A stretch of 45,519 nucleotides of DNA from Candidatus Dadabacteria bacterium. Lineage in GTDB: Bacteria > Desulfobacterota_D > UBA1144 > Nemesobacterales > CSP1-2. Where the stretch lies: the NCBI GenBank assembly GCA_040289575.1, contig PSLL01000008.1:64299-109817 (forward strand), in the 5' to 3' direction. The notes beneath the pieces are model-generated. The model was not told the origin of the DNA, did not search any database, and saw nothing but the letters and a program-made list of their open reading frames with translations. Below, piece by piece: positions 4,897 through 26,106 of the stretch (its first letter is position 1; every line of letters starts with the position of its first letter). A program made the translations under genes and the position numbers.

Positions 4897-5306
4897 CTTT
4901 ATCCTCCTTCGATTCTAGTACCTCTATTATCGGACATTCACCCATTGGGCCTTTACCGCTACACATTGCTACAAGCTTTGTAAGCGCCTTCTTTATACCT
5001 TGCAGAGTGCGGATTTTTTCTTGTATGTCTGCAATTTTTGCTTCCGCACGTCTTTTCACATCCGCGCATGTAGTACCGGGGTCAACCCCTTAATGATAGA
5101 AGCTCTGAGATTTCTTTCAGTGTGAATCCAAGTTCCTGAGCGCGCTTTATAAACTGAATACGGTTGACTATTTCCTCGGAGTATTGACGATAACCAGACC
5201 TCGGGCTTGGTGGTTTAGGTATATGACCACAGCGTTCATAGTAGCGTATAGTTTCAACATTGACATCTGCCTTTTTAGCGACCTGTCCTATGGTTAGATT
5301 CCCCAT
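4889..5306 (-). pseudogene. merR: MerR regulator with a +1 frameshift
   Basis: HTH ETIRYYER. Removing one G from the GGGG run (CCCC at 5086-5089) restores ...LRVDPGTTCADVKRR...AMCSGKGPMGECPIIEVLESKEDKDD*, 138 aa with the three Hg-binding Cys. Confidence 0.88.
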
Positions 5307-5323
5307 TTTTTACCTCCATTCAT

Positions 5324-5355
5324 ATTATAAACTCCGTACCTAGATACGGAGTCAA
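5324..5355 (-). promoter_or_regulatory. MerR-type promoter/operator
   Basis: TTGACT (5355-5350), 20-bp spacer, TATAAT (5329-5324), with the dyad ACTCCGTA-N6-TACGGAGT (5331-5352) across the spacer. Confidence 0.9.
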
Positions 5356-5536
5356 GTCTTCTTTGAATTTTTTAATTTTTTCTACTTCTTGTTAGAATTG
5401 GTGTAAAACCCTTGAGAATAGATAACATTGAAGAATTGGCTTCAATGCCTATGGTTCAATTTGATGAATTGGAAAGCTAGGGTTCTTTCTTATATACCCG
5501 AGTTTTTCTCTTTGTTCTCTGCCGTAAATCTTCTAT

Positions 5537-6028
5537 TTATTTCATAGTCTTATCAATCCCCAACACCCTTTTTAGAAACCTTTCTGCATTCTCTATATGT
5601 GTGCCTGCCCAGTATATCCTTCCGCATGAGTTGCACCGTCTGAATTTATTTTGAGTCTCCCATACGTAAGAAGGAATCTTATCCATTAGGGAATCTTTTG
5701 AAACCTCTTCAAGTAAAGCGTTACAGCGGATACATCTTGTAAAAGCACTTTCAAGTGTATCAAGTTCAAAAACTCGGATAAACTCAAGGATCTGTTCAGT
5801 CAGATGATCGCTCCATATAAGAAGATACTCCTTTATATTTTTTCTCCTCTCTATAGATCTGTCTCTTGTAAGAATTACCCACCCCTCAGAGATGGCACGC
5901 TGTATTAGAATCTCATCGGCGATATCCTTTTTGTATTCCGCGTCTACTCCGGCGAGTCTCAACCATTTGGCGAGCTTCCCAAGCATCGAGTCGGCAATAA
6001 AGTGTGTCTCAAGAGCCTTTCTCTTCAT
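5537..6028 (-). CDS. Mut7-C (PIN-like) RNase domain protein
   Basis: DSMLGKLAKWLR, LTRD, RCIRCN and CNSCGRIYWAGTH zinc-ribbon motifs. Confidence 0.88.
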   Translation of the reverse strand: MKRKALETHFIADSMLGKLAKWLRLAGVDAEYKKDIADEILIQRAISEGWVILTRDRSIERRKNIKEYLLIWSDHLTEQILEFIRVFELDTLESAFTRCIRCNALLEEVSKDSLMDKIPSYVWETQNKFRRCNSCGRIYWAGTHIENAERFLKRVLGIDKTMK

Positions 6029-6250
6029 TTGTAATATGATACCAACTTCTAATATAGGAGTGCTAATAAAAAGGGCTTAGAATCAATCCGCTTTGTTCAA
6101 TATGGCTTTTTGTTAAAAAGGTAGCAGGAGTTTATTATCTAGGCGGTTCATGGATGTCTCTGTCTGGATCAAGGTCAAGCGTCTAGACATGAAAATTGTA
6201 ATTAAGGCTCCGGACTCAGGTTCTTGGAGGCTAATTCGTTGATAAATAAA

Positions 6251-7849
6251 CTAGGCTGCCTTTTCCTGCAAGATATCTCTGGTTAATCTTTCGGCCTCAT
6301 CTATTCCTTCGGTTGATGCGGCAATTAGGCTCAGTGATTTTTCTCCAATCTCTAAGGTTAAGCTAAAGCTCTTTCTGTTTTTCTTCTCAAACTCTACAAG
6401 CGGAGTGATGACATTGTCTAAAAATCTATTGAAGGCATCCATTGTTCTTCTTCTTACCTTTCCGTAGCCCTTTATCATCTGCCCACTCTTTGCTATGAGA
6501 CATCCGATGTCGTAGTTTATTTTCGCAAATCTTTCTACACTGGTCTTATACTTTTTGATTAGTGAATGCTCTTTGTGGTAGCGATAAGAGTAAGGTCTCA
6601 TAAATTTAAGTTTGGTAAGGAGCCAGAGCCTCAAAAACCCCGAAAAAGAGGTAGTAACTGGTTTTTGTCCAAGGGTTATTTTTTTATTCTTAGGCCAGAG
6701 ATTTTGAAAAAAGTCAGTCTCGGTAAGGTAGATTATCGGGGCTACGAGAAAGTTTGGAAGGAGTCCATAAATCTCCTCGGCATCTGGTTTCAAATAGTCC
6801 GTAACGCGAAATGTCTGATCGGATCTCAGCCTCATCTCCTCTTTGATCCTTTTGAATCTCTCCGGCCTAATTTTAAGATCGGCTACCCGGATTCCGTCCT
6901 CATATGTCATCCAGAGGGCAAGGTTCTTGGCAAATATTTCGGTGAGCCTAAATCCGCCCTTCATTTCCTTATCTATATAATATGTGCTTTTGAGTTCATT
7001 CAAATACTTTTTTGCGTATCCTGCATCTTGATAGTCTATTAGCCTAAAAAGGGCTTCTGCCATAATTTCCCTAAGGTGGGTGGGATACTCCGCCTCGATT
7101 TCAGAGATTAATTTGAGATATTCATCTCCTGATTTAGGTGCTAATTTTTCGACCCTCTCTTTTTTAAACTCCTCCCAACTCTTCTGGAGCGCCGATTTTA
7201 GCTCGGCGTACTTACGGGATTTTACATAGTCCCATCCAATTCTAAATGCCTTTATGTTGCTCCCCACCGCGACCCCTGCTTCTTCTATCGCCTTTATGTA
7301 ATTGACCTCGGATATTGGCAGTGCCTCAGATGCCCCCAGTGCCCCAAGGAGTATTGCGTTTACTCCAAGCTCATCCATTCCATTTTCTTTGGCTATTTCA
7401 AGTGCATTGAATGCGATGAAAAGAGAAGAGAAGTTGGTTGCGAGTTTTTTCAGGTTTTCGTTTGAATATATACCGCTGCTTATAGGGGTTTTCTCAAGGG
7501 TAGAATAAATCCTGTGTGTGCTTGAGACGACTACCGTTCTCTCTGAGCCGTATCCGGTCTCAAGTGCCCTTCCCAGTTCAAGGAACTCTTGGGCTAGAAT
7601 CACATCTACATCTCCTGGAACAGGGTATTGAGAGAATATGATTTGTTTCTGATCTGAATTCACCCTCGGATGAGCTTCAAGATAATAGACCGTTGAGCCG
7701 CCGCGCTGAGAAAGCCCGGGGAGCCCTATTGCCTGAACCTCAAAACCCTCGAGGAGAAAGGCCTGGACAAGCCACTCTGTAAGAACCCCGCCACCTTGTC
7801 CTCCTACCGCCGGAATTAGGATTTTTATCAGTTCGCTGTTTCTATCCAT
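6251..7849 (-). CDS. iorB: Indolepyruvate:ferredoxin oxidoreductase beta subunit with a long C-terminal extension
   Basis: AVGGQGGGVL, PGLSQRGGSTVYY, LIDYQD, LWMTYED and IKGYG motifs. Start moved to ATG 7849 because the upstream codons fall in a repeat. Confidence 0.85.
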   Translation of the reverse strand: MDRNSELIKILIPAVGGQGGGVLTEWLVQAFLLEGFEVQAIGLPGLSQRGGSTVYYLEAHPRVNSDQKQIIFSQYPVPGDVDVILAQEFLELGRALETGYGSERTVVVSSTHRIYSTLEKTPISSGIYSNENLKKLATNFSSLFIAFNALEIAKENGMDELGVNAILLGALGASEALPISEVNYIKAIEEAGVAVGSNIKAFRIGWDYVKSRKYAELKSALQKSWEEFKKERVEKLAPKSGDEYLKLISEIEAEYPTHLREIMAEALFRLIDYQDAGYAKKYLNELKSTYYIDKEMKGGFRLTEIFAKNLALWMTYEDGIRVADLKIRPERFKRIKEEMRLRSDQTFRVTDYLKPDAEEIYGLLPNFLVAPIIYLTETDFFQNLWPKNKKITLGQKPVTTSFSGFLRLWLLTKLKFMRPYSYRYHKEHSLIKKYKTSVERFAKINYDIGCLIAKSGQMIKGYGKVRRRTMDAFNRFLDNVITPLVEFEKKNRKSFSLTLEIGEKSLSLIAASTEGIDEAERLTRDILQEKAA

Positions 7850-13272: not shown

Positions 13273-14100
13273 TCAAACATTGATGATAGAGGATAAATCA
13301 ACCTCGCAATCAATCTGTTCATAATCGACAAGGTCTTTGATTTTTGGATTTTCGCTGCAGAGAGAGCACTTGGGATCGCGCTTCACCTTCACGTCCATAA
13401 CGGACATGGTTAGAGCGTTAAATACAAGAAGCCTTCCGGCAAGTGTCTGCCCTATTTGTAGGATTTCCTTTAGTGTCTCGACGGCCTGTATGGTTCCGAT
13501 TATCCCTGCAACGGCTCCTAGAATCCCCGCTTCCTGACAGCTTGGAATCATACCCGCCGGTGGAATTTCGGAATAGAGGCAACGATAACAGGGGCCGCCC
13601 GCATGCGGTTTAAATACAGATACTTGCCCTTCGAACCTGAGTATAGCGCCTGAGACGAGGGTTTTTCTCTCAAAATAACACGCGTCATTTACGAGATAGC
13701 GCGTGGGGAAATTATCGGAGCCGTCGAGTACGATGTCGTAATTCCTTATAATGTCTCTTATGTTCTTTTTTGTTATCATCTCTTCATAGACAATGACGTT
13801 CACATCGGGGTTAAGCTTCTCTAATTTTTCCCTGGCCGAGAGCGCCTTGGGTCTCCCAATATCGTCTGTGAAATGGAGCACCTGTCTCTGAAGGTTGGAA
13901 ATATCTACCTGATCTGAATCGGCGATTCCGATGGTTCCAACACCTGCTGCAGCAAGATAGAGCGCAACGGGTGAGCCAAGTCCTCCCGCTCCGACACAAA
14001 ATACCTTTGAGCGAAGGAGCCTCTCCTGCCCCACGCCGCCTACTTCCGGAAGAAGTATATTCCTGCTGTAGCGATATATCTGTTCCTCAGTTAATTCCAC
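13273..14100 (-). CDS. moeB: MoeB/ThiF family sulfur-carrier adenylyltransferase (no rhodanese domain)
   Basis: RYSR, GAGGLGS, SNLQRQ, DNFPTRY, PCYRCL, SCQEAG and CSLC motifs; GTG start after GGAGGA. Confidence 0.92.
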   Translation of the reverse strand: MELTEEQIYRYSRNILLPEVGGVGQERLLRSKVFCVGAGGLGSPVALYLAAAGVGTIGIADSDQVDISNLQRQVLHFTDDIGRPKALSAREKLEKLNPDVNVIVYEEMITKKNIRDIIRNYDIVLDGSDNFPTRYLVNDACYFERKTLVSGAILRFEGQVSVFKPHAGGPCYRCLYSEIPPAGMIPSCQEAGILGAVAGIIGTIQAVETLKEILQIGQTLAGRLLVFNALTMSVMDVKVKRDPKCSLCSENPKIKDLVDYEQIDCEVDLSSIINV

Positions 14101-14121
14101 TTTACTCCTCCTAGTTAATAT

Positions 14122-14229
14122 CTAGACACGAAAAAGACAGGATACAGAACACGGAATACAGGGAAAAACCTCAAGTCCGTGTATCCTGTATTCTGTCTAC
14201 TGGTTTAATTCGTGTTCATTCATGGCTAG
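14122..14229. repeat. Second nested heptamer palindromic element
   Basis: CTAGACACGAA...TTCGTGTTCATTCATGGCTAG with 7-mers AAGACAG/GATACAG/AACACGG/AATACAG. Shares TATTCTGTCTACTG and GTGTTCATTC with 10711-10838. Confidence 0.75.
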
Positions 14230-14243
14230 TTAAGATTACGAAA

Positions 14244-14648
14244 TTAATTCAATTTCTTCCTCTTCAATGGAGAATCAAAATCCTTAAGAACCCATGCCCT
14301 GCCGTCTTTGTACTTTCCACCATGAATAGAGAGTATTATATATACCCATTCGGGCCATGCCCTCCCTCTATCAAAACCCGACGGACGCGATGGATGATCC
14401 GGATGAGAATGGTAGATTCCAAGGATATTCATCCCGTTCGACCTTGCCCAATCATCAGCCTCCTTGAACGAAAGCGGGTCGAGTTCATATCGGTCGCGTG
14501 CCCTTTCGCGGTTCAGATTCCTGCATTCTTTGAAGCTTGTTATCTTACCATCTTTCCCAATAAGGACACCACAGACCTCATTTGGGTATCCGGACTCGGC
14601 GTGTTTTATTACCCCATCATAGGCCGATTTAATTATCTTTACCACCAT
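14244..14648 (-). CDS. mec: JAB/Mov34 (M67) metallopeptidase, Mec-like
   Basis: YPNEVCG and YHSHPDHPSRPS-x2-D JAMM motif. The C-terminus appears frameshifted (see findings). Confidence 0.88.
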   Translation of the reverse strand: MVVKIIKSAYDGVIKHAESGYPNEVCGVLIGKDGKITSFKECRNLNRERARDRYELDPLSFKEADDWARSNGMNILGIYHSHPDHPSRPSGFDRGRAWPEWVYIILSIHGGKYKDGRAWVLKDFDSPLKRKKLN

Positions 14649-15589
14649 ATACCTCCGCTCAAATACCTGTATCCACCATCGGGAAGAATGGTTACAACTA
14701 CCCCCTCCTTCAAACCCCTTGCGTATTTAAGGGTGGCATAGACTGCAGCCCCGCTCGAATGCCCTACAAAGAGTCCTTCTTTTTTAAGGAGCTCTTTCAT
14801 GACCCTGTATGAATCCTCTGTAGATACTTGAATCTTCTCATCTGCAAATGTCGGGTCGTATATTCCTGGCACGATTGATGTGGCCATGTGCTTTAGTCCC
14901 TCGAGACCGTGCAGGGGTTCGGCGGGCTCAATGGATATGACTTTGATATTGGGATTGAATTCTTTGAGTCTCCTTCCGGTTCCCATGAGGGTACCGCTTG
15001 TACCGATCCCAGCAAGAAAGTGAGTAACTCTGCCGTGTGTCTGATTCCAGATCTCTGGAGCTGTCGTTTCATAGTGAGACATCGGATTTGCGGGGTTGTT
15101 ATACTGGTCGGGCATAAAGTATTTATCGGGATTTTCGGCTTTTAATTTCCTTGCAACCTTTATCGCTCCGTCCGATCCTTCAAGAGAGTCAGAAAGGATC
15201 ATCTTTGCTCCAAAAGCCTCAAGCGTTCTTTTCCTCTCTATGTTCATGTTTGCAGGTGTGACAAGCTCAACCCTGTAGTCGAGCGCAGCCCCGATCATCG
15301 CGTAAGCAATAGCGGTGTTCCCGGAGGATGAGTCCATAATTATCTTATCGCGTGAGAGTTTACCCGTGCGGATTCCATCGAGTATCATCCATAGAGCGGG
15401 ACGGTCTTTTATAGAGCCTCCGGGGTTAAACCACTCCGCCTTTGCGTAGACCTCTACGTCTGGACTTAAGCCATCTACTATTTTCTTGAGTCTAATAAGG
15501 GGAGTATTGCCGATTAAATCAATTACAGATTCGACCCTTTTTCTTTTTTCAAGAACCTTAATCTTTCTTGCTAAAGAAGAATCCATCAA
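14639..15589 (-). CDS. cysM: PLP-dependent cysteine synthase (CysM type)
   Basis: IGNTPL, NPGGSIKDR, SSGNT, GTSGT, HGLEGLKHM and SSGA motifs. Confidence 0.9.
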   Translation of the reverse strand: MMDSSLARKIKVLEKRKRVESVIDLIGNTPLIRLKKIVDGLSPDVEVYAKAEWFNPGGSIKDRPALWMILDGIRTGKLSRDKIIMDSSSGNTAIAYAMIGAALDYRVELVTPANMNIERKRTLEAFGAKMILSDSLEGSDGAIKVARKLKAENPDKYFMPDQYNNPANPMSHYETTAPEIWNQTHGRVTHFLAGIGTSGTLMGTGRRLKEFNPNIKVISIEPAEPLHGLEGLKHMATSIVPGIYDPTFADEKIQVSTEDSYRVMKELLKKEGLFVGHSSGAAVYATLKYARGLKEGVVVTILPDGGYRYLSGGIWW

Positions 15590-16222: not shown

Positions 16223-16678
16223 TCAGATAGCATTTAGATTATCGTAATTAGGTCGGGGTTCTTTTAAATATCTCCTGAGCATCTCTATTAGTTTTGTATT
16301 GCCTAATCTCTCGGCCGCCTTTGCGTGGCTCCACGCTAAATCATATTGCTCGCGGAGTGCGTATATTTCTCCAAGATTCTTATGGGCATCGGATAAATTC
16401 GGATCAATATCGAGTGCTTTTTTATATAAATCAATAGCCGCCTCTACTTTCCCCTGAAAATAATAAAGGATGCCGAGGTTGTAATGGGCTTTTGCAGAAC
16501 TGGGATTTTCTCTAAGAAAACTCTTCTGAGTTTCTATCTCTGAATCTATATCATAGTTTAGAGAAAACTCTGCTAAGTTGTGAATAAAGCTCCTATTGTC
16601 TTTTCCTCTAGTGAGTCTTATCATTTGTATGGCTTTTAACGTTTCTGTAATCTTATTTTTGATTTGAGCAAGTGTCAT
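16223..16678 (-). CDS. TPR repeat protein
   Basis: AKAHYNLGILY and SDAHKNLGEIY repeats. Confidence 0.75.
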   Translation of the reverse strand: MTLAQIKNKITETLKAIQMIRLTRGKDNRSFIHNLAEFSLNYDIDSEIETQKSFLRENPSSAKAHYNLGILYYFQGKVEAAIDLYKKALDIDPNLSDAHKNLGEIYALREQYDLAWSHAKAAERLGNTKLIEMLRRYLKEPRPNYDNLNAI

Positions 16679-16714: not shown

Positions 16715-17368
16715 CTAAAGTGGATTCGGTTTCCGCAGGTTAAACTCAATCATCTCTTCATAATCAAAGAGAACCGCTTCTGCCACTGTAGCGGCACGCC
16801 TCTCCGGGTTTAGGGTTTCGTTTACCTCGGTTTTTAATTCCATCCAGTGGTTATAGATTTCCATCTGATTTTCAATTAGCTGATCGGCATCAATTTCCTT
16901 TACTTCTCGGAAATTTAGTTTGCAGGTTTGAAGCTCGTTGGGCTTTTTGGGGTCGTATATGGGCATGCCAAATTTGCGGCAGACAATCGGCCTCGATTCA
17001 TAGATTCCGCAGGCTCCATTATCATCAAGGGCGGGGCAGGGGAGCCTGAGGCCAATTGTAGAGATTTCGTCGCCATCGCAATCTAAATCCATCCGTCCAG
17101 ATCTTTCGCAAATCATCTCCTCTCTTTTCTTGATGTAGAGCCGGGCCTTTTCCTGTATCTTCTTACGAGTTTCAGAATCGAGCCTCTTTGCGGCCTGTGA
17201 AACGACGGCCGCGTCAATAAGCGTAATTTTAAACATCTGGCTACAGCATAGAAAGCAGCCCTTTCTACACTGCATCTGTCCAGGATAGAGGTTGAAATTG
17301 CGGTCGAATTCCCTTTCGGTTAAGTTGGCAATGAATCTGAAGCGGTCAAATACCTTTTTAATATCCAA
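16715..17368 (-). CDS. YkgJ family cysteine-cluster protein (Fe-S or Zn)
   Basis: CRKGCFLCC, CPAL, CGIYESRPIVCR motifs; TTG start. Confidence 0.88.
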   Translation of the reverse strand: MDIKKVFDRFRFIANLTEREFDRNFNLYPGQMQCRKGCFLCCSQMFKITLIDAAVVSQAAKRLDSETRKKIQEKARLYIKKREEMICERSGRMDLDCDGDEISTIGLRLPCPALDDNGACGIYESRPIVCRKFGMPIYDPKKPNELQTCKLNFREVKEIDADQLIENQMEIYNHWMELKTEVNETLNPERRAATVAEAVLFDYEEMIEFNLRKPNPL

Positions 17369-17375
17369 CTGTCTC

Positions 17376-17849
17376 TCACCTTCTATTGAGCATATCTACG
17401 AGCTTAATCTGATGAACCTGCTCAGAAGGGAGGACAGTGGTTCCGTCTAGGAGTCCGTTTAGTGCTTCGAGGAGTTTATCGAGGTCTATTCCGTAGTCCT
17501 TTGCGGCGGCTCCAAGTATGTGGTCTTCTTTAATGTTGCAGCTTGAACATCCGCCAAGATGAAACCCAGCCATAACTGTCTGGGCAAGTGGATGGAGCCT
17601 CAGCGCTTCGCCAATTGTCATATCCTTATGAAAATAAGGGGCACCCAATTGCCTTCTCATCTCCTCTTTTAAACCTGCAAGAATATCCGCCTTTAGTTGA
17701 TCGAGGGAATAGCCAACATGTCTTCTCAGGGCATCCGCTTCATCGCGGGCCTGCTGAACCTCATCTTTAAGTTTGCGTGTGCTTATAAGACTATATGCAG
17801 TAACGATGAGAGAAATACCTGAAATTATATAGGGGATAAGATTTTCCAT
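17376..17849 (-). CDS. Membrane-anchored DUF1858-like CxxC protein
   Basis: N-terminal TM and coiled coil, then DMTIGEAL...FHLGGCSSC...YGIDLDKLLEALN. Confidence 0.75.
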   Translation of the reverse strand: MENLIPYIISGISLIVTAYSLISTRKLKDEVQQARDEADALRRHVGYSLDQLKADILAGLKEEMRRQLGAPYFHKDMTIGEALRLHPLAQTVMAGFHLGGCSSCNIKEDHILGAAAKDYGIDLDKLLEALNGLLDGTTVLPSEQVHQIKLVDMLNRR

Positions 17850-18052: not shown

Positions 18053-18334
18053 TTATTTGGGTATAAATTCTTCTAGGGCTTTAGATAACTCGCTCGGTTC
18101 GATCTTTTCTCCGTTATTTAGCCTTTCAATAAACCCGTTTATTATTTCCTTTGCTCTGTCTTTTTTGAAATTCTTTATAAATCCATCATAGAAATGCTCG
18201 CCTGCAAGCGCTTTGTTTATTTCATTCTCTTTGTTGTGGTCATCAAGCTCTGTGAAATAGCAAACCCTATATTTATCCGTATATGTTGTATCTCGATATA
18301 TCATAAACATTACTTTGTCTGACTCAACGGGCAA
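18053..18334 (-). CDS. Hypothetical protein downstream of the PlsA-like gene
   Basis: YRVCYFTELDDHN...AGEHFYDGFI. TTG start 10 nt after GGAGG; the longer ORF start lies inside a REP. Confidence 0.75.
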   Translation of the reverse strand: MPVESDKVMFMIYRDTTYTDKYRVCYFTELDDHNKENEINKALAGEHFYDGFIKNFKKDRAKEIINGFIERLNNGEKIEPSELSKALEEFIPK

Positions 18335-18354
18335 CTCAAGTACACCTCCATTCC

Positions 18355-18382
18355 GCAGGGGCAAACAATTGTTTGCCCCTGC
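18355..18382. repeat. GTAG-type REP palindrome
   Basis: Perfect 28-bp palindrome GCAGGGGCAAACAA|TTGTTTGCCCCTGC. Confidence 0.8.
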
Positions 18383-18391
18383 AAATCAGAA

Positions 18392-21300
18392 TCATTCTTT
18401 ATTCTTAAAAGCAACCCTCTGCTCTTCGATAAAACCGCCGCTGCCGCGGACACCATTGGAGAATTCTTCTCTCAGCTTTACCTCAATCTCCTTGAGTTTT
18501 TCTTGTAGCTGGATCTTCTTCTGCTTGTTTTTGACTATATCCTCTTTGTACCTGCTGAGGAAGTAGTCAATTGTTTGAACCCTGATCTTTATTGATCCCG
18601 TGGGCTTGTTCTCATCAATGTCTTTAAAGCAGAAATAAGGGGTGCCGGAGTCTTCAACAATCTCCTCAACCACCGTGTATATCGGGGCATCGTGACCGCA
18701 TTTAAAGCTTGAAAGCTCAAGTGCTACAAGATTTGGATGCCTTGCAACGTACTTTGCCGCCCAGACCTTACGGCTTGTGTTTTCGCTGTATGAGTTTTTC
18801 CACACATCGGATATATCCATCGGGTGTGAGATTATCCCCTTTCTTACGTCCTCTCCAAAGAGCCTCTCGAGTATGTCGTCATCTATTGGCAGTGAATCCT
18901 CAGTAAAAACTGGATAGCCAAGCTTCTGGAACTCCTCCATAATTTCATGGTTGATTCCTGGGTCGTTGTGATACGGGCGTCCGAGAAGAACAATCCCAAG
19001 TTTATCTTCGGCTTCGAGTTTTTTGAGTACCTCGCGCCCGACCCCGCGTTGAATGTCGTTATTGAACTTATCAAGAGCCTTGTATCCCTGCTCAATAGCC
19101 CGTCTGTTTTCCTCTTCGGAAAGTCCTAATATGTCCTTGAACTCATCATACATCTGCTTTGCAAAGAGAGGAGGATCGTTGATATTAACAAATGTATTAA
19201 GAAAGATTATCCCATTCTGGGCAAATATGTCACCCTCTTTGATAAATGCGGCTTTAACGGCCGCGGGCGTAGTTGCTACTGTTGGACATGCCCTGCTATC
19301 CCATGTATTTAAGAGGTCTGAGGTTAGGGAGTCAATCATGGGAAAGAATATAATGTTAAGGGGTTTCTTTTTATGGTGATGGTATATAAGATTATGAACA
19401 TGCGGAATTCCTACCTTACTTGGGAAGCATGGGTCAATTGCGCCCCGTTTTGCCCCCTCTTTATAGAGCTCCTCTGTGGTGAAGTCGGAGTAAACTAGGT
19501 TCTCGAAGGGGATTCCCAGGCTCTCAAAATACGCGCTGAATACTGGGTTCTGAGAGTACATATTCAGCACCCTTGGGATTCCGATTCTCAGGTTCCTTCT
19601 ATTCTTCATAAGCTCTGCGCGCCTTTTCTGAGCCTTTGTGAACTTATACTTTGGAAGAGGGTCGGCGACTATTTCAGGACTAAATGACCTCCAAACCGTC
19701 TTTGCCGCAATCTCAACCAGGTTTGGATTTGCCTTCTTTGCGCTGTCCAGTCCCTTCTTTATGACCTTCATATCCTCAATATCTTCTACCAACCCTTTTT
19801 CACAGCTGTTTCCAACGATAAGGCGCTTAATACCTGGACCTGCCGGCACTTTGGATTTTGGACTTACTGTGACCTCCGTGCCCCCAATATTGACATCAAT
19901 AAATGTTCTAAGGCACTTGTTTTTACAGAAATAGCACCTTGTATCCTCGCTTCTATGAGTGTCATAAGTAATTTTTTCTACTGCATCGAGTCCAATAAAG
20001 TTCGTTCCCTTTCCATTTTCCCATAGGCGTATTGCTTCAATCGCCGCGCCAATTGCACCGCTTTCGCCGCAGTGTTCGTGTACAATGACCCTGGGTTTTT
20101 GATCAGAGCCTTTAAACCTGGATTCAATGAAGTCAACCTGGGCCTTTACCGCAGCGAGGTTGTTTTGGGTTCCACCCTGCAGGAGGAAGTTTGTCCCTAG
20201 TTTAGCGAGATTTGGAATTTGAGAGACATAGAGCCAGATATTTTTTGGAAGCACCGCGGCAAGCCCGGCCATAATCTCTTCGGGCTTCCATCCCTGCCGC
20301 TGAAAGTCAACTATGTCGGACTGCATAAAAACGGCGCATCCGTATCCGAATGTGGGCATTGCTTCGGCGCTGAAGGCGACATCGGCGAAATCCTCAACCT
20401 TTATCCCAAAACCCTCAGCCGTTCCCTGAAGGAAATACCCATTTCCAGCAGAGCACTGTGTATTGAGTTTAAAGTCCTTAACCTTTCTGTTCTTGAGTAT
20501 CATTATCTTTATGTCCTGTCCGCCGACATCGCATATAACGTCAACCTCTTTATAGAAGTGGAGACCTGCCTCTGTGTGGGCGACGGTTTCAACAAGGGCG
20601 ACATCGCCCCTAAGGACGTCTTTGAGGATATCCTTTGCGTATCCGGTTGTTCCTACACCGAGCACCTTGAGCGTCGCTCCCTGCTCTTCTACCTTGGCGC
20701 GGAGCTTTCTGAACATCTCTATTGTGTCTTCAATCGGGTTGCCCTTGGATAACTGGTATGCTTTAACCAATACTTCTCTGTTCTTGCTCATTAAAACCGC
20801 TTTGGTTGAGGTTGAGCCTCCGTCAATTCCTACAAAGGCCTCAACCACTTCACCCGGTTTGAATGTTGCGGGGATGAAGGGTTTCTTTTTGTACCTCTCT
20901 TTAAATGCCTCAAGCTCTTCTGGGCTTTTGCTAAGTCCCTGAGCCCCCTTCCTCTTCTTTTCCTCGGCTCTGCCAAAGTTGATGTAATATTCGAGGTCTT
21001 TTGTGCCTTTGTATAGTCCAACATTAGGCTCTTCTTGTTTCCCGAATTCAACGGCTCCAATTGCAGCAAAATACTGGGCATTCTGGGGAACCTTAATCAA
21101 CTCCTTGGGATCAATCCCCTCCGGAAGTTGAACGTTTCTCTCTTCCCAAATCTTAGGGATGTTATACCTCCACGCCTCTACCATGCCTCTAATGTAGGTA
21201 TTTGGACCACCGAGAAGAAGAACTACGGGTCTGAGTGTATTTCCACGTGTAAGGACTGCAAGGTTCTGCCCAACTATAGCCTCAAAGAGCGAGGCCATAA

Positions 21301-21895
21301 GCTCTTCTCTGGGGACTCCCATCTTTTGAAGGCTGTTTATATCTGTCTCTGCAAACACGCCGCACTTTCCGGCAACAGGATGGAGTTTTAAATCATAATA
21401 CCCCATATTGCAGAGCTGATCAGGCGGGATTCTGAGCTTTGCATTGATCTTATCAATAACCGCCCCCGTGCCGCCTGCGCATTTATCATTCATGCTTGGA
21501 ATCTTTTTCTTCTTTCCGGTCTCCGGGTCCTCTTTGAATATTATTATCTTTGCATCCTGACCGCCTAGCTCAATGACAGAGCCGACCTCGGGGTGGAGCT
21601 TTTCAACGGCAAGGGAAACGGCATTGACCTCCTGGACAAATTTTGCCCCAATCAGACGGGCGATTCCTCCCCCTCCGCTCCCTGTAATAAATATCCTGAA
21701 TTTGTCGGGTGGGAGTCCAATATCATTTTCGATTCTCTTTAGAAGCTCCATTGTCTTTTCGGGCTGTTTTGTGTCGTGCCTCTGATAATCCTTCCATATA
21801 ATTTCATCCGTAACTATGTCAACAACGACTGCTTTAACGGTAGTTGAACCCACATCCATGCCTATATAAAGGGGTTCATGAATTAGTTGTCCCAT
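18392..21895 (-). CDS. BadF/BadG/BcrA/BcrD-type double ATPase activase plus dehydratase-like domain (PlsA/Ger-like)
   Basis: Two ASKHA activase domains (GMDVGSTT/ELGGQD/KCAGGTG/KCGVF; GIDGGSTS/DVGGQD/QCSAGNG/GCAVF) and C-terminal PCFPSK, CPTV, FKCGHD. ATG 21895 follows GGAGG. Confidence 0.88.
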   Translation of the reverse strand: MGQLIHEPLYIGMDVGSTTVKAVVVDIVTDEIIWKDYQRHDTKQPEKTMELLKRIENDIGLPPDKFRIFITGSGGGGIARLIGAKFVQEVNAVSLAVEKLHPEVGSVIELGGQDAKIIIFKEDPETGKKKKIPSMNDKCAGGTGAVIDKINAKLRIPPDQLCNMGYYDLKLHPVAGKCGVFAETDINSLQKMGVPREELMASLFEAIVGQNLAVLTRGNTLRPVVLLLGGPNTYIRGMVEAWRYNIPKIWEERNVQLPEGIDPKELIKVPQNAQYFAAIGAVEFGKQEEPNVGLYKGTKDLEYYINFGRAEEKKRKGAQGLSKSPEELEAFKERYKKKPFIPATFKPGEVVEAFVGIDGGSTSTKAVLMSKNREVLVKAYQLSKGNPIEDTIEMFRKLRAKVEEQGATLKVLGVGTTGYAKDILKDVLRGDVALVETVAHTEAGLHFYKEVDVICDVGGQDIKIMILKNRKVKDFKLNTQCSAGNGYFLQGTAEGFGIKVEDFADVAFSAEAMPTFGYGCAVFMQSDIVDFQRQGWKPEEIMAGLAAVLPKNIWLYVSQIPNLAKLGTNFLLQGGTQNNLAAVKAQVDFIESRFKGSDQKPRVIVHEHCGESGAIGAAIEAIRLWENGKGTNFIGLDAVEKITYDTHRSEDTRCYFCKNKCLRTFIDVNIGGTEVTVSPKSKVPAGPGIKRLIVGNSCEKGLVEDIEDMKVIKKGLDSAKKANPNLVEIAAKTVWRSFSPEIVADPLPKYKFTKAQKRRAELMKNRRNLRIGIPRVLNMYSQNPVFSAYFESLGIPFENLVYSDFTTEELYKEGAKRGAIDPCFPSKVGIPHVHNLIYHHHKKKPLNIIFFPMIDSLTSDLLNTWDSRACPTVATTPAAVKAAFIKEGDIFAQNGIIFLNTFVNINDPPLFAKQMYDEFKDILGLSEEENRRAIEQGYKALDKFNNDIQRGVGREVLKKLEAEDKLGIVLLGRPYHNDPGINHEIMEEFQKLGYPVFTEDSLPIDDDILERLFGEDVRKGIISHPMDISDVWKNSYSENTSRKVWAAKYVARHPNLVALELSSFKCGHDAPIYTVVEEIVEDSGTPYFCFKDIDENKPTGSIKIRVQTIDYFLSRYKEDIVKNKQKKIQLQEKLKEIEVKLREEFSNGVRGSGGFIEEQRVAFKNKE

Positions 21896-21938
21896 TTTTA
21901 TACCTCCAGAGGGTTTGTGATTGAGGTTTGTTTTTTCT

Positions 21939-21966
21939 ATAGGGGCGTATCGCGATACGCCCCTAT
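21939..21966. repeat. GTAG-type REP palindrome
   Basis: Perfect 28-bp palindrome ATAGGGGCGTATCG|CGATACGCCCCTAT. Confidence 0.8.
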
Positions 21967-21974
21967 TAAAAAGA

Positions 21975-23738
21975 TTAATGGCGCCTTTCACCCTTCATTC
22001 GTTCTCCAACGTGCCGGACAAATCTTGCCGCTACCCCAATCACTCCCTTGTAGTGAGGGATGTGATAGAACGGCCTCTTCAATTCTGGATGCTCATCAAT
22101 GTATGCCTTTATCTCTTCTAGGGTGTAGCCAGTCTTGGAAAGCGCTTCCTGGAATTCATTCTTTGCCTTTACCTTTGCCTCTCCAAGTGCCATCTGAACG
22201 CGGCTGTGTGCGTTGACATCGCCCTCGCCCGATGTCTCAATCGGTATGTAAATCATGTCTTTATAAAGATTAACAACCGCAGACTGTGCGCCGTCGCTTT
22301 GGGTGCTCGGCATGCAACCAAATGGCTTTAGCGAGAGAACCATGTGGGCGAGGTCTTTGTTGCTGTAGTATATGTTCTTTGCCACCTCAAGATGTCCTTC
22401 TCCCCCACCGGCTCTTGAATTATAGAACGGATGTCCAAGCCTCTGTAATTCATACTGGTCTGTAAGGTCGTGAGGAAGGTTGCCTAAGGATTTCCTCATC
22501 CTGTTCCATTCGCGTCTGAATATTACCTCAGCCGCTGTGAGCATCGCATGCTTCTTTTTATAGTCCGTGTATTTTGAAAGCGCCTGGTCAAGCCTCCACC
22601 AGCCCGGCACATCATGGCCGTTTTTGGGAAGCCCTTTCCTGTCATTTAGAGACTGCTTCGCCTGATGTATCATGTACATGATCCATGTGCCAATAGGTTC
22701 AACAAGCACCTGAGCGCCCTCCCTCTCAAGGAACTTAAACATATTAAAGTTTCCGTCACCCTCTGTGGTCTGCGCCCAGAATTCACCGGTGATCTTAACA
22801 ATCGGCTTTACACGTGTGCGGTCAACCTCAATGCTGTTAAACCTGTCTCCAACCTCCCTTAAGGCGGCTGTGTATTCATCGCTATAGAGCTGGCTGAGGA
22901 ACTTGCCTATATACTCGGCTGAACCGGCAACCTTCGGGAACTTCCTTAAAAATTCTCCGACCTTGCCTTCGAGTTTAAACGGCTTGTGCTTTCTTAAAAC
23001 CTCGTGCAGATAGTCCATGCTCTCTCCAAGGACTCTATCGGTTTCGCCTTTATTTACTTCATAAGGTCTTATCTGATAAACGACATCGCTTATCAAGTCG
23101 CCCATATTCATGCCGTTTAACATCCCGAAGAAGAAATCCATATTCATCTCAAGCCCCGCATCCTCATCCGCTTGATCGAGGCCGCCTGTTTGCTGGAAGA
23201 GAATCACCCTAAAGCCGTCAAAGCCCGCATTCCTGAGTGCGAGGCGATATTCGGCCTCATACATTCCAAACCTACAAGGCCCGCATGCTCCTGCTGTAAC
23301 AAACACATACTTGTCAATAATCTCCTGTTTGGATAAACCCCTTGCCTCTAATTTCTGAAGGTACTGAACGAGGTTTCCGACCGTGAAGTATGTAGGATTG
23401 CACTGTCCGTTGTTTCCATACTCCTTTCCCAACTGGAATGCCGTTTTATCAGGGGTGGGAATATATTCAACATTGTATCCTAATCCCTCTAGTGCTCCGT
23501 GGACAAGGTGTTCGTGTTTCCACGTGAGTCCGCCGTAAAGAACGGTTGTGTAGGGTCTCTGGGATCTCGTAAAAGGACGCTCTATAGGTTTATGAAAATG
23601 GTGAACTGGCTTTTCCTCAATGCCCAGTTCCTTTTCAAGCCTGGCCTTTTCTTCTCGGAGTCTCTTCTGAATGAAGCTCTCAATCCTTACAAAGCTCTCC
23701 TGAGTATTGCCATTCGAATATCTATCTAAGTTGCTCAT
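21975..23738 (-). CDS. 2-hydroxyacyl-CoA dehydratase/reductase-like Fe-S subunit (PlsR-like)
   Basis: GQCNPTYF, GACGPCRFGMY, GEGHLEVAK and KPFGCMPS motifs; GGAGG RBS. Confidence 0.82.
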   Translation of the reverse strand: MSNLDRYSNGNTQESFVRIESFIQKRLREEKARLEKELGIEEKPVHHFHKPIERPFTRSQRPYTTVLYGGLTWKHEHLVHGALEGLGYNVEYIPTPDKTAFQLGKEYGNNGQCNPTYFTVGNLVQYLQKLEARGLSKQEIIDKYVFVTAGACGPCRFGMYEAEYRLALRNAGFDGFRVILFQQTGGLDQADEDAGLEMNMDFFFGMLNGMNMGDLISDVVYQIRPYEVNKGETDRVLGESMDYLHEVLRKHKPFKLEGKVGEFLRKFPKVAGSAEYIGKFLSQLYSDEYTAALREVGDRFNSIEVDRTRVKPIVKITGEFWAQTTEGDGNFNMFKFLEREGAQVLVEPIGTWIMYMIHQAKQSLNDRKGLPKNGHDVPGWWRLDQALSKYTDYKKKHAMLTAAEVIFRREWNRMRKSLGNLPHDLTDQYELQRLGHPFYNSRAGGGEGHLEVAKNIYYSNKDLAHMVLSLKPFGCMPSTQSDGAQSAVVNLYKDMIYIPIETSGEGDVNAHSRVQMALGEAKVKAKNEFQEALSKTGYTLEEIKAYIDEHPELKRPFYHIPHYKGVIGVAARFVRHVGERMKGERRH

Positions 23739-23779
23739 AATATAGCACCCTCCTAATATAAATTATTAGGAGTTTTATT

Positions 23780-23796
23780 CGCAAGAAGGGTGCCAG
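23780..23796 (-). promoter_or_regulatory. Sigma54 -24/-12 promoter
   Basis: Minus strand CTGGCAC-CCTTC-TTGCG matches TGGCAC-N5-TTGC, about 40 bp upstream of the PlsR-like start. Confidence 0.85.
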
Positions 23797-23879
23797 AAAC
23801 TCGATTTATTTCTAATCTATCAAAATTATTAAATAATTTGTGTTTTCTCAGGACCCCACTTAAGTTTTAGTTGCTATTA

Positions 23880-23930
23880 GTGTATAAAAAAGATACACAT
23901 TAACCGTTTTATCTGTTGCAGAAAGATACA
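23880..23930. promoter_or_regulatory. Candidate upstream activating sequences for the adjacent bEBP
   Basis: GTGTAT-AAAAAAG-ATACAC (23880-23898) and TGT-TGCAGAAAGAT-ACA (23914-23930). Both are TGT-N11-ACA and start 33 bp apart. Confidence 0.6.
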
Positions 23931-24087
23931 CAAACAGGGTTTTTGAAAATTAGGTGTATACTTTTGTCCCTAAGTTCGGTATAATCGTAGAGCAATGACA
24001 GTGCAAGGCGGACTTAAAAGCAAATACGAAGTATTTGAATGAAGAATGTAGATACAAATATATTTACGATAAAGTTGAGGTTTAAAC

Positions 24088-26106
24088 ATGGGAGTAGAAC
24101 AAATACTAGAAAGACTGAGGTGGTATGAGGCAAGGGAGGCGATTCTCAACAGAATCAGCCCTGAGTTAAACAGCGTTATAGACATAGATAAATTCCTCAT
24201 TGCCACCGTTCAGGAACTCGGAAAAATGATGGATGTGGACAAGTGCGATTTTATAGTTCCAAACGGGGATCAAGGCCTTAGGGTGGAGTATGAATATAGA
24301 AAAAACGGCTCTATCCTCTCGACTACAAACCTCGTAATCCCAATGCGGGAGAATGGGTGGGAGGCAGGATCAATAGGCACTATTGTAATTAATGACGTTG
24401 CCCAAGATAAATTTGACGAGAGGCTTAGGGAAATCCTTGCCAGAAACGGCACGCGCTCATTCCTCTGCATCCCGGTGGTATTTCAGGATGAGCTTTTGGG
24501 TATTCTGGGATTCCACCACTGTGAGAATCCACACACATGGTCGGAGAGTGAGATTAATTTCTTAAAATCCCTCACTCAGCAGACATCAATCGCACTTCAG
24601 TACACGAGGCTCTACACCCGGATGGAAAAGGAGGTAGAGATTACAAAAACACTCCTTGAGATTACGAATGAGATAAACTCGAAATTGGACTTCTCTGAAA
24701 TCACGTCATTTGTTCTGAGAAAGGCTGTGGAGTTGCTCGATGCGACTTACGGCTCAATCGGGGTTCTGAACACAAATGAGAGAAGACTCAGTATTACGAC
24801 ATTTTATCCTGAAAGTATTTCCTCTCTCAAGAATATAAGCCTAAATGTCCCTTTGGATGCGACCCATTATGATGAAATATTGGACAAAAAAACCGTATGT
24901 ATAGCCGGTGAAGAGGCTTCCTCTGCGGCATCGGTCTATCTTATGAATGCCCTCAGAGGTAGGTCTCTGATTATAAGTCCTATTGTTATTGATGATAAGA
25001 CATACGGAACCCTCAATCTTGTATGGGATGCCAAAAAGGATATTTTTAAACCCCACGAGGTTGAGCTTGTAAGCGGAATCACAAATCAGATGGCTGTTGT
25101 GCTGGAGAAGAACAGGCTCTCTTCGGAGCTGATTTTGCTTAGGAGAGAACTCACGGGGATAAGTGCAAGCGAGATGATAGTGGGTGTGAGTAAGAAGATT
25201 GAAAAGTGTGTAGAGATTGCGCTCAGCGTCATAGACAGCGATGTGACCATTCTACTTGAGGGTGAGACCGGAACGGGAAAGGAGTTGATAGCAGATTTCA
25301 TACAGAAAAACAGCAATCGAAGAGACAAGCCCTATATCAAGATAAATTGTGGTGCAATCCCTGAAACCCTGATAGAGGCGGAGCTCTTTGGGTATGAGAA
25401 GGGGGCATTTACCGACGCAAAAACGCAAAAGATAGGGAAATTTGAGGTTGCAGATGGGGGCACCATATTCCTTGATGAGGTGGGGGAACTGAGCCTTAAC
25501 GCTCAGGTGAAGCTCCTTAGGGTTCTCCAAAATGGAGAGCTTTTTAGAATCGGGGGCAACCAGCCTATAAAGGTCCACGTTCGAGTTATTGCGGCGACAA
25601 ACATTGACTTACAGGAAGCCATAAAAAATCAGAGATTCCGCTCGGACCTCTACTATAGGCTCAATGTTTTTCCAATACTTATTCCGCCTCTTAGAGAGAG
25701 AAAGGAGGATATACCGCTTCTTGCCCATCACTTCCTTGAGATTTATAAGAAGAAATCAAGGAAATTGATTATAGGCATATCCGACAATGCGATGGAGCTC
25801 CTTAAAACCTATGATTGGCCCGGAAACATTCGTGAGCTTGAAAACGTCATAGAGCGGGCGGTTATTACGTGTGTTAGGAAGGTGGTGACAGTAGATGACC
25901 TGCCTAAGAACATAATAGACTCTGCTAAGAAGGAAACCGATAACAAGATCGTGGTTGAGATCGGTTCGACAATGGATGAGATAGAGAAGCGCGTAATTGC
26001 GGAGACTCTGAGTTACACCAAGGGCGATAAGAAACACGCGGCGAAGATTTTAGGAATTACGAGGAAAACGCTTTATAGGAAGCTGAAGGAATATAATATT
26101 AGATAA
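24088..26106 (+). CDS. Sigma54-dependent transcriptional activator (two GAF domains, AAA+, Fis HTH)
   Basis: [39 protein letters not shown] and [11 protein letters not shown] motifs; two N-terminal GAF-like regions. Confidence 0.93.

Follow-up and report, generated by a model that had tools for sequence, protein, structure and literature searches.

We analysed a 45,519-nucleotide stretch of contig PSLL01000008.1 from a Candidatus Dadabacteria bacterium, an uncultured organism of soil (the stretch is hereafter the window), in which the gene for a sigma-54 activator (24088-26106, plus strand, 672 aa) lies divergent from two minus-strand genes, R587 (21975-23738, 587 aa) and BBD1199 (18392-21991, 1199 aa). 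We read this arrangement as an operon that depends on sigma-54, is gated by the activator, and encodes an ATP-driven Fe-S reductase of the PlsA/PlsR/Ger family, split over two genes, with a lipid ester as the likeliest substrate; taken as a whole, this reading has in our estimate an even chance of being right. The link between the regulator and the operon is the solid and new part of the finding. A reading made from the sequence only had described a two-GAF activator divergent from a dehydratase-like Fe-S gene and a double-activase/dehydratase gene; all three open reading frames (ORFs) were recovered at the same positions, and the Pfam domains of the activator and BBD1199 agree.

The activator gave Pfam matches to two GAF stretches, Sigma54_activat (3.8e-69), AAA_lid_14, and HTH_8. 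Its map consists of GAF1 (residues ~32-170), GAF2 (~190-345), AAA+ (364-530), the lid, and HTH_8 (629-669), with Walker A at 392, a GAFTDA loop at 439, and Walker B at 462. Of the features of a sigma-54 enhancer-binding protein, Sigma54_activat with Walker A and B and an HTH at the C-terminus were present, the genome carries rpoN, and a -24/-12 promoter lies nearby. The NCBIfam models for NifA and FhlA spanned residues 188-608 and 128-671, respectively, both with scores far below the equivalog cut-offs. The nearest solved structures for the two GAF domains were GAF domains of the sensor-kinase and bilin type (best E 3.2e-9).

The promoter TGGCACCCTTCTTGC (23781-23795, minus strand; -24 TGGCAC, -12 TTGC) is the sole TGGCAC-N5-TTGC match in the window, and none of 100 shuffles gave such a match. 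It points at R587 and ends 43 nt before its ATG, with the strong ribosome site AGGAGGGTG lying between them. Three candidate upstream activating sequence (UAS) boxes were observed farther upstream. Box 1 (23880-23899) is the palindrome TGTGTATC-TTTTTT-ATACAC (GTGTAT-N7-ATACAC), centred ~96 bp upstream of the -24 element. Boxes 2 (~23922-23934) and 3 (~23953-23969) are of the GTATAC(AC) type and read TTTGTGTATC and GGACAAAAGTATACACC, respectively, on the operon strand; box 3 lies ~167 bp upstream of the -24 element. When the intergenic region was aligned with those of two congeners (L002 and L053), the islands of identity were the promoter, the ribosome site, and the three boxes. TGGCAY-N5-TTGC was kept in both congeners and in two of three more distant relatives (L089 and L090), the third (L091) having TGGCAC-N5-TTGG. 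The three boxes recurred in L089, L090, and L091, with box 3 altered in L090. In L090, the most diverged case (activator 57% identical), the box 1 palindrome was changed on both arms to TGTGTC-N6-GACACA. A consensus -24/-12 promoter and candidate UAS boxes between the genes had been proposed from the sequence; the former proved to be a single match in the window that is kept in relatives, and the latter proved to be three GTATAC-type boxes forming conserved blocks across them. In L053, a 2.3-kb insert (5146-7504), which contains a Uma2-family endonuclease gene and three ORFs without family, parts the activator gene from the boxes and the promoter, which remain beside R587.

Class-level and phylum-level searches gave an identical set of 120 genomes. 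R587 was found in six of them, including the source genome, and these span four genera and two families. Orthologues of the 355-aa double-GAF part (E<=1e-100, 49-90% identity) were present in exactly the same six genomes; a seventh match was a GAF protein with 21% identity (E 1.5e-11). In all six genomes the activator orthologue is divergent from the R587 operon and adjoins it, and the flanks of L089, L090, and L091 each carry a full-length activator orthologue; the three identities are 86, 66, and 57%, the lowest being that of L090. The six genomes are relatives, and the linkage is worth about two to four independent observations. A dedicated regulator is the clear reading because adjacency, co-occurrence, and the conserved promoter and operator coincide, and judging from these comparisons the activator very probably controls the R587-BBD1199 operon. 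The earlier proposal that a sigma-54 switch governs the module is thus well supported by the adjacency in six of six genomes and by the phyletic co-occurrence.

Another explanation is that the activator is a mere neighbour with some other target and that the operon promoter is served by a different activator. The source genome encodes, together with rpoN (sigma-54), ~13 activators and has 36 further TGGCAY-N5-TTGCH sites. The palindrome type is not enriched, a genome-wide search having found 8 sites against ~14 expected, so that no regulon was definable. The loop that contacts sigma-54 is also non-canonical, being GAFTDA instead of GAFTGA; the tolerated variants given in the available part of PMC6615313 are GSFTGA, GAYTGA, and GAFSGA, and GAFTDA is not among them. 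Against this explanation stand the perfect co-occurrence and divergent adjacency across the four genera and two families, the boxes that change along with the most diverged activator (L090), and the loop itself, since GAFTDA is conserved in five of the six activator orthologues (that of L091 has GAFTGA). We consider that the activator is hardly likely at all to be a bystander. A second activator of the same genome (G000:C29:14252-14944) likewise has GAFTDA, not GAFTGA. Elsewhere in the genome, a GTGTA-N9-TACAC palindrome (G000:C26:9231-9249) lies ~300 bp upstream of another TGGCAC-N5-TTGC site (9545); this may be a coincidence, or the site may be one more target for an activator of related type.

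For comparison outside the lineage, a species-genome scan gave 592 confirmed R587 relatives, of which the best 80 loci were kept for neighbourhood counts. A sigma-54 activator stood beside R587 in two of these 80 loci, both from the congeners L002 and L053, and none of the 78 loci from other phyla had any sigma-54 activator (72 of the 80 loci offered >=3 kb of upstream DNA). The synteny check that the sequence-only reading had called for thus gave a mixed outcome, the activator being conserved beside its homologues in all six genomes of the lineage and absent from the 78 loci elsewhere. L002 and L053, two probable congeners, are labelled Spirochaetia and Ignavibacteriales, respectively, in public records; as the phylum of the source organism comprises only 120 species genomes in the collection searched, both labels look loose.

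The two enzyme genes were also compared with known families. BBD1199 gave Pfam matches to two BcrAD_BadFG stretches (2.4e-67) and DUF2229/PF09989 (1.3e-50, residues 802-1034); it is built of two activase ATPase domains, a linker with the pattern CxxCxxxC...C, and DUF2229 as the catalytic domain. The DCCP-reductase chain 7yyl_E matched its residues 42-248. Because the homologue alignments start at residues 28-43, its true start is probably the ATG at 21895 (Met33), the first 32 codons being untranslated. R587 gave no match in Pfam (to E 10), NCBIfam, or the PDB sequences (phmmer and profile search), and in the ESM Atlas it matched its own kind only, with PF09989 present in 13% of one cluster.

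At the level of the fold, both proteins resembled 2-hydroxyacyl-CoA dehydratase (HAD), benzoyl-CoA reductase (BCR), and DCCP. The AlphaFold model of R587, built from an alignment of 34 full-length sequences picked among the homologue matches, had a pLDDT of 88.6 and a pTM of 0.85. Foldseek returned HadC, MbdO/N, DCCP, and BzdNO as the best matches, with a probability of 1.0 and TM scores of only 0.3-0.5. In VIA, the top 8 rows were all HAD, BCR, or DCCP (Z 8.4-9.8, 274-286 residues aligned), followed by single-domain flavodoxin-like structures at Z ~7. For the C-terminal half of BBD1199, 22 of the 59 matches of full length went into the model (pLDDT 79.1), which likewise had HAD, BCR, or DCCP in its top 10 VIA rows (Z 8.2-12.1), the next row falling to 6.3. 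The 'dehydratase-like' description previously given to R587 therefore stands for the fold and finds no counterpart among sequence matches in Pfam, NCBIfam, or the PDB. When the R587 family and the BBD C-terminal family were compared by hhalign, the probability was 0.5% with no profile match; the fold of the models and the position of the motifs suggest that the two are kin.

Cys113, Cys155, and Cys475 of R587 are invariant and Cys152 is nearly so. In BBD1199, eleven cysteines were conserved in 57 of 57 and 10 of 10 rows: two in each ATPase domain (Cys171/210 and Cys513/552), the CxxCxxxC...C set, and three in DUF2229. From these domains, folds, and cysteines we assign the pair with high confidence to the ATP-driven HAD/BCR-type reductases of the PlsA/PlsR/Ger family.

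The same folds would also suit an enzyme of the classical kind, either a 2-hydroxyacyl-CoA dehydratase or an aryl-CoA reductase, that has its activator fused to it, is induced by its substrate, and serves fermentation or aromatic degradation. The matches to HadBC, BzdNO, and MbdON point that way, and the sigma-54/LeuR control of hadAIBC of C. difficile, as given in the accessible part of PMC6615313, is a precedent for the regulation. On the other hand, PF06050 (HGD-D) was detected in neither R587 (E<=10) nor BBD1199 (E<=0.001), and no benzoyl-CoA reductase model of NCBIfam matched above its cut-off. Genes for CoA-transferase, CoA-ligase, acyl-CoA dehydrogenase, or electron-transfer flavoprotein were found neither in the window nor among the recurring neighbours of the 80 loci. 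Moreover, R587 and BBD1199 have a wide distribution among Acidobacteriota, Actinomycetota, and records labelled SAR202. A CoA-thioester enzyme of this kind is accordingly quite improbable, and the PlsA/PlsR/Ger family remains our assignment.

With regard to that family, the weaker homologue tier (E 1e-28 to 4e-4) consisted of BBD proteins of ~1380-1480 aa, some of which carry PF06050 fragments (P0321, P0332, and P0313). BBD1199 aligned to the first ~1000 residues of the ~1400-aa BBD proteins with 25-32% identity, and R587 aligned to residues ~1000-1410 of 17 of them with 21-27% identity (BLASTP E 1e-15 to 6e-33), so that R587 would be the counterpart of PlsR as the second catalytic subunit. 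These proteins keep Cys113, Cys155, and Cys475 of R587 together with the motifs Cys-x-Pro, G-x-C-R, and P-F-x-C-(M/L)-P. According to the parts available of PMC13159169, PMC12838417, and PMC8788747, single-chain PlsA and Ger share the size and architecture of this class. The same parts of PMC13159169 and PMC12838417 present PlsA/PlsR and Ger as the BBD enzymes with demonstrated function, which favours the lipid reading.

R587 also occurs as part of larger proteins. Proteins of 1580-1880 aa join it to BBD, with either partner first (35-55% identity; e.g., P0149, P0273, and P0180), and at least 17 clusters (P0283-P0300 and P0158; ~1265-1310 aa) join it instead to an NADPH oxidoreductase of the GltD-like type. 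The latter carry Fer4_20, Pyr_redox_2, and a 2x[4Fe-4S] ferredoxin domain, and such fusions hint that electrons may reach the R587 clade by an NAD(P)H-linked route.

For the domain of the second subunit, a quick maximum-likelihood tree was built from 43 rows, including 14 unnamed ~1400-aa proteins of PlsA/Ger architecture, with SH-aLRT as the only support. Of the phylogeny that had been called for from the sequence, this tree covers unnamed representatives of the architecture, and the R587-type rows fell across a long branch from them. The 14 ~1400-aa rows (support 94) and 28 R587-type rows (support 96) formed separate groups on branches of ~1.6 each, and a mis-cut row (P0277, branch 8.8) was placed outside both. 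The window R587 grouped with two order-level relatives (support 99) and nested among acidobacterial and actinobacterial sequences. This nesting and the distribution in 6 of 120 genomes suggest acquisition by transfer; the cassette of regulator and operon was probably acquired as a unit.

A second system was found beside the R587 type in Solibacter-type genomes. Five genomes whose loci are labelled Solibacter or Solibacteraceae (G120-G124) each held an R587-type BBD and a second system, in which an ORF of 422-463 aa, weakly matching DUF2229, comes after a BBD of ~1000-1037 aa. Two genomes in which this second pair, ordered A then R, was examined (L092, 2215-6485; L093, 2059-6326) have R partners of 422-426 aa. 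By BLASTP, the BBD of the L092 second pair was 40-43% identical to the ~1400-aa class versus 24% to BBD1199, and its partner was 34-39% identical to the C-terminal part of that class versus 22% to R587. In a sample of 61 genomes of their order, 18 had DUF2229 and at least five of these 18 held both size classes, as judged crudely by ORF length. The source genome holds the R587-type system only. From these comparisons, R587/BBD1199 is taken as a paralogue in a distinct clade, not an orthologue of PlsA/PlsR or Ger. The match to PlsA/PlsR and Ger noted in the sequence-only reading is consequently upheld for architecture, fold, and cysteines, and not for orthology, as indicated by the identities of 21-32%, the long branch, and the coexisting pair. 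Because the R587-type pair coexists with a PlsA/PlsR-sized pair, we argue that the two are not identical in function.

The 80 loci also served to define the neighbourhood of the pair. They were mostly from Acidobacteriota, with some from Actinomycetota and one Ignavibacteria-labelled record, and the enzyme pair was also found in SAR202-labelled records. A BBD1199 homologue follows R587 on the same strand in 76 of the 80: 59 of these loci have a spacing of <=300 nt, 16 one of 300-2200 nt, and a single locus one of 7 kb. In the other four loci the DNA extends no more than 841 nt beyond R587. The order seen in the window, reductase-like gene first and activase gene second, is therefore that of all 76 related loci with both genes. 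Without the two congeners, identities were 63-73% for R587 and 67-82% for BBD, a high degree of conservation between phyla. The clade is broad, all of 8000 scored candidates having matched, with 1977 representatives at 50% clustering. In 12 Terriglobia-type loci (L007-L021, L028, and L077), a gene of the glyoxalase/VOC family lies between R587 and BBD; the insert of L028 adds a SnoaL-like gene, and L021 has two glyoxalase-family ORFs.

The small protein s103 (18053-18364, minus strand; conserved core ~85-92 aa) starts 27 nt after BBD1199. It lies downstream of BBD in 22 of the 80 loci across three phyla, and also in L090 and L091, and its invariant residues include F20, Y23, Y28, N44, E48, G55, and G85-E86 (alignment A4). 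It matched no Pfam, NCBIfam, or PHROG family, and a complex prediction with R587 and the DUF2229 half gave no answer (score 0.00). Farther downstream on the minus strand, Pfam and NCBIfam identified a DUF1858 protein (17376-17849; TIGR03980, 'hybrid-cluster-protein-associated redox disulfide'), a CxxCxxCC protein (16715-17368), and a tetratricopeptide repeat (TPR) protein (16223-16678). No terminator was called in the 203-nt gap after s103, and the three genes are a possible tail of the operon. Runs listed for the stretch comprised four soil DNA runs from two studies, two of the runs being possible sources of it, and no RNA dataset. The order DUF1858-CxxCxxCC-TPR is the same in L002 and L053, and DUF1858 is also present in L090; a TPR protein follows s103 in nine acidobacterial loci, or in 11 of the 80 when L002 and L053 are counted. 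The DUF1858 and CxxCxxCC proteins, which stand between s103 and the TPR gene in the source lineage only, are possible electron-transfer helpers.

Other recurring neighbours were housekeeping or variable genes, such as DnaE-AccA (8-9 loci) and an LMF1-family membrane protein (11). No radical-SAM gene appeared among the neighbour clusters present in at least four of the 80 loci, no search having been aimed at radical-SAM genes. In the window itself, an E1-like enzyme of the ThiF family, a protein with a JAB domain, and a PALP enzyme dependent on PLP stand in a row at 13273-15589, which by its gene content looks like a cysteine or thiocarboxylate pathway of the sulfur-carrier-protein type.

Several of these results weigh against a sigma-54-gated lipid ester reductase of the PlsA/PlsR/Ger family. 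They are the GAFTDA contact loop, the long branches of ~1.6, the coexistence with a second system in five of five Solibacter-type genomes and in at least five of the 18 DUF2229 genomes of the order sample, the lack of PF06050 in both proteins, and the recurrent fusions to GltD-like oxidoreductases, which the available passages on PlsA/Ger do not describe. To these must be added that the ~1400-aa class is equated with PlsA/Ger by architecture and length, and that genes for lipid synthesis are not among the recurring neighbours in the 80 loci; AccA occurs in eight of them, always by DnaE.

Some of the same evidence would be expected if the enzyme were the same regulated ATP-driven reductase acting on a small molecule or soluble metabolite, as DCCP does, the lipid resemblance being a matter of ancestry. 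DCCP scored comparably to HAD/BCR in the structural comparison (Z 8.6-8.8 versus 9.8 for R587, 10.3-10.7 versus 12.1 for the BBD half), and genomes with the R587-type pair also hold a pair of PlsA/PlsR size, to which it is paralogous. The fusions with NADPH-oxidoreductase and ferredoxin modules, the redox-type genes downstream (DUF1858 and CxxCxxCC), and the housekeeping or variable neighbourhoods elsewhere fit this view as well. Nevertheless, the three invariant cysteines in each half (with Cys152 of R587 nearly so) suit one [4Fe-4S] cluster each, as in HAD; the nearest colinear sequence relatives are proteins of the PlsA/Ger architecture; and no candidate substrate pathway lies nearby. We regard a non-lipid substrate as a substantial possibility, if a rather doubtful one. 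The lipid ester is our leading guess for the substrate, which we put forward with somewhat less than even confidence. A narrower proposal makes the R587/BBD1199 clade a lipid ester reductase in its own right, the second beside the PlsA/PlsR-sized pair with which it coexists in Acidobacteria that make diethers and tetraethers, and acting perhaps on the sn-2 ester or on another lipid class than that pair. It strikes us as unlikely, though worth stating.

On the lipid ester reading, the system would work as follows. A small ligand or redox cue would act on the GAF domains of the activator, which would bind the three GTATAC-type boxes 95-170 bp upstream of the promoter and use ATP to open the closed complex of the sigma-54 holoenzyme at TGGCAC-N5-TTGC. 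R587, BBD1199, and s103 would then be switched on, perhaps with the three downstream genes. Judging from the family, the two fused ATPase domains of BBD1199 would be bridged by a [4Fe-4S] cluster bound to Cys171/210 and Cys513/552 and would accept an electron from a ferredoxin-type donor, and ATP hydrolysis would drive this electron, at very low potential, into a heterodimeric core. This core is expected to consist of the DUF2229 domain (Cys855/902/1098) and R587 (Cys113/155/475). The last step, of which we are least sure, may be reduction of a membrane glycerolipid at the carbonyl of its acyl ester, passing through a ketyl radical and leading toward an ether of the vinyl or alkyl type.

Regulation of related loci has been described in part. 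In the available text of the review PMC9702350, a TetR/AcrR regulator is placed upstream of pls in E. faecalis, and in that of PMC6615313, binding of sigma-54 at the hadA promoter of C. difficile is shown and control by LeuR predicted. The sequence-only reading, which held that no dedicated regulator had been described for such loci, was therefore too broad. Our literature search returned no paper linking sigma-54 with ether lipids or plasmalogens or with plsA, Ger, or HAD, the second term set being poorly built in that sigma-54 synonyms were counted separately.

Bacterial ether and tetraether lipids (brGDGTs, or branched glycerol dialkyl glycerol tetraethers) serve widely as palaeoclimate proxies, and the ether-bond enzymes of soil bacteria and their control signals are unsettled. 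The passages available of the preprint 10.64898/2026.06.23.733905 call BBD-only matches Ger homologues and place 'ger' in Acidobacteriota and other phyla; these passages carry no mention of a partner gene. With a PlsA/PlsR-sized pair coexisting with the R587 pair, surveys that score every BBD match as 'Ger' may mix two paralogous systems. Similarly, the 'PlsAR homologs' that Halamka et al. (PMC10087280, in the part available) proposed for ester-to-ether conversion in S. usitatus may be either Solibacter pair. The predicted ligand-sensing switch, with its defined promoter and operator, makes the function of the enzyme and its inducer open to reporter, binding, and expression experiments. If the pair were indeed a second lipid ester reductase, the double-GAF activator would be the first dedicated sensor that switches on bacterial ether-lipid formation, and the cassette would offer a compact inducible system for proving the function and identifying the environmental cue.

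Finally, the system was compared with known ones. The activator resembles FhlA and NifA in its GAF-GAF-AAA+-HTH build and differs from them in its target operon, its GAFTDA loop, and its scores far below the equivalog cut-offs. HadBC/HadI (PDB 3O3M) is the structure that both catalytic halves match best (Z 9.8 and 12.1), and the pair would share its ATP-driven electron injection, and the sigma-54 control in C. difficile, as covered in the accessible part of PMC6615313, provides a precedent in the HAD family. In contrast to our pair, Had has a small separate activator, a CoA-thioester substrate, and Pfam HGD-D membership. DCCP uses six cysteines on one subunit for its [8Fe-9S] cluster. DCCP/DCCP-R (PDB 6ENO, 7YYL) belongs to the same fold class (Z 8.6-10.7), whereas the present pair has three invariant cysteines per half, besides the nearly invariant Cys152 of R587, and a fused double-domain ATPase.

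Ger (Thermotoga maritima Tmari_0479; Desulfatibacillum alkenivorans SHJ90043) has the BBD core in common with BBD1199. As described in the available part of PMC13159169, two PF01869 domains and PF09989 are conserved in all alkyl-ether producers, and Ger consists of a single polypeptide in which BBD is followed by fragments of PF06050 and PF09989 (BBDHDDH); here there are two genes, without PF06050 and with a longer second subunit. The ~1400-aa class of PlsA architecture has all 11 BBD and three R587 cysteines in common with our pair. Single-ORF PlsA occurs in Enterococcus, Lactococcus, and Bifidobacterium, whereas here the enzyme is encoded by two genes. PlsA/PlsR of Clostridium perfringens (CPE1194/1195) has the same tandem BcrAD_BadFG domains and DUF2229 followed by a second reductase-type subunit, and its ATP-driven HAD/BCR-type chemistry is the one predicted here; the present operon differs from it in the reversed gene order, R then A, and from the PlsA/PlsR-sized pairs of L092 and L093 in the length of the second subunit, 587 aa in R587 versus 422-426 aa in their R partners.

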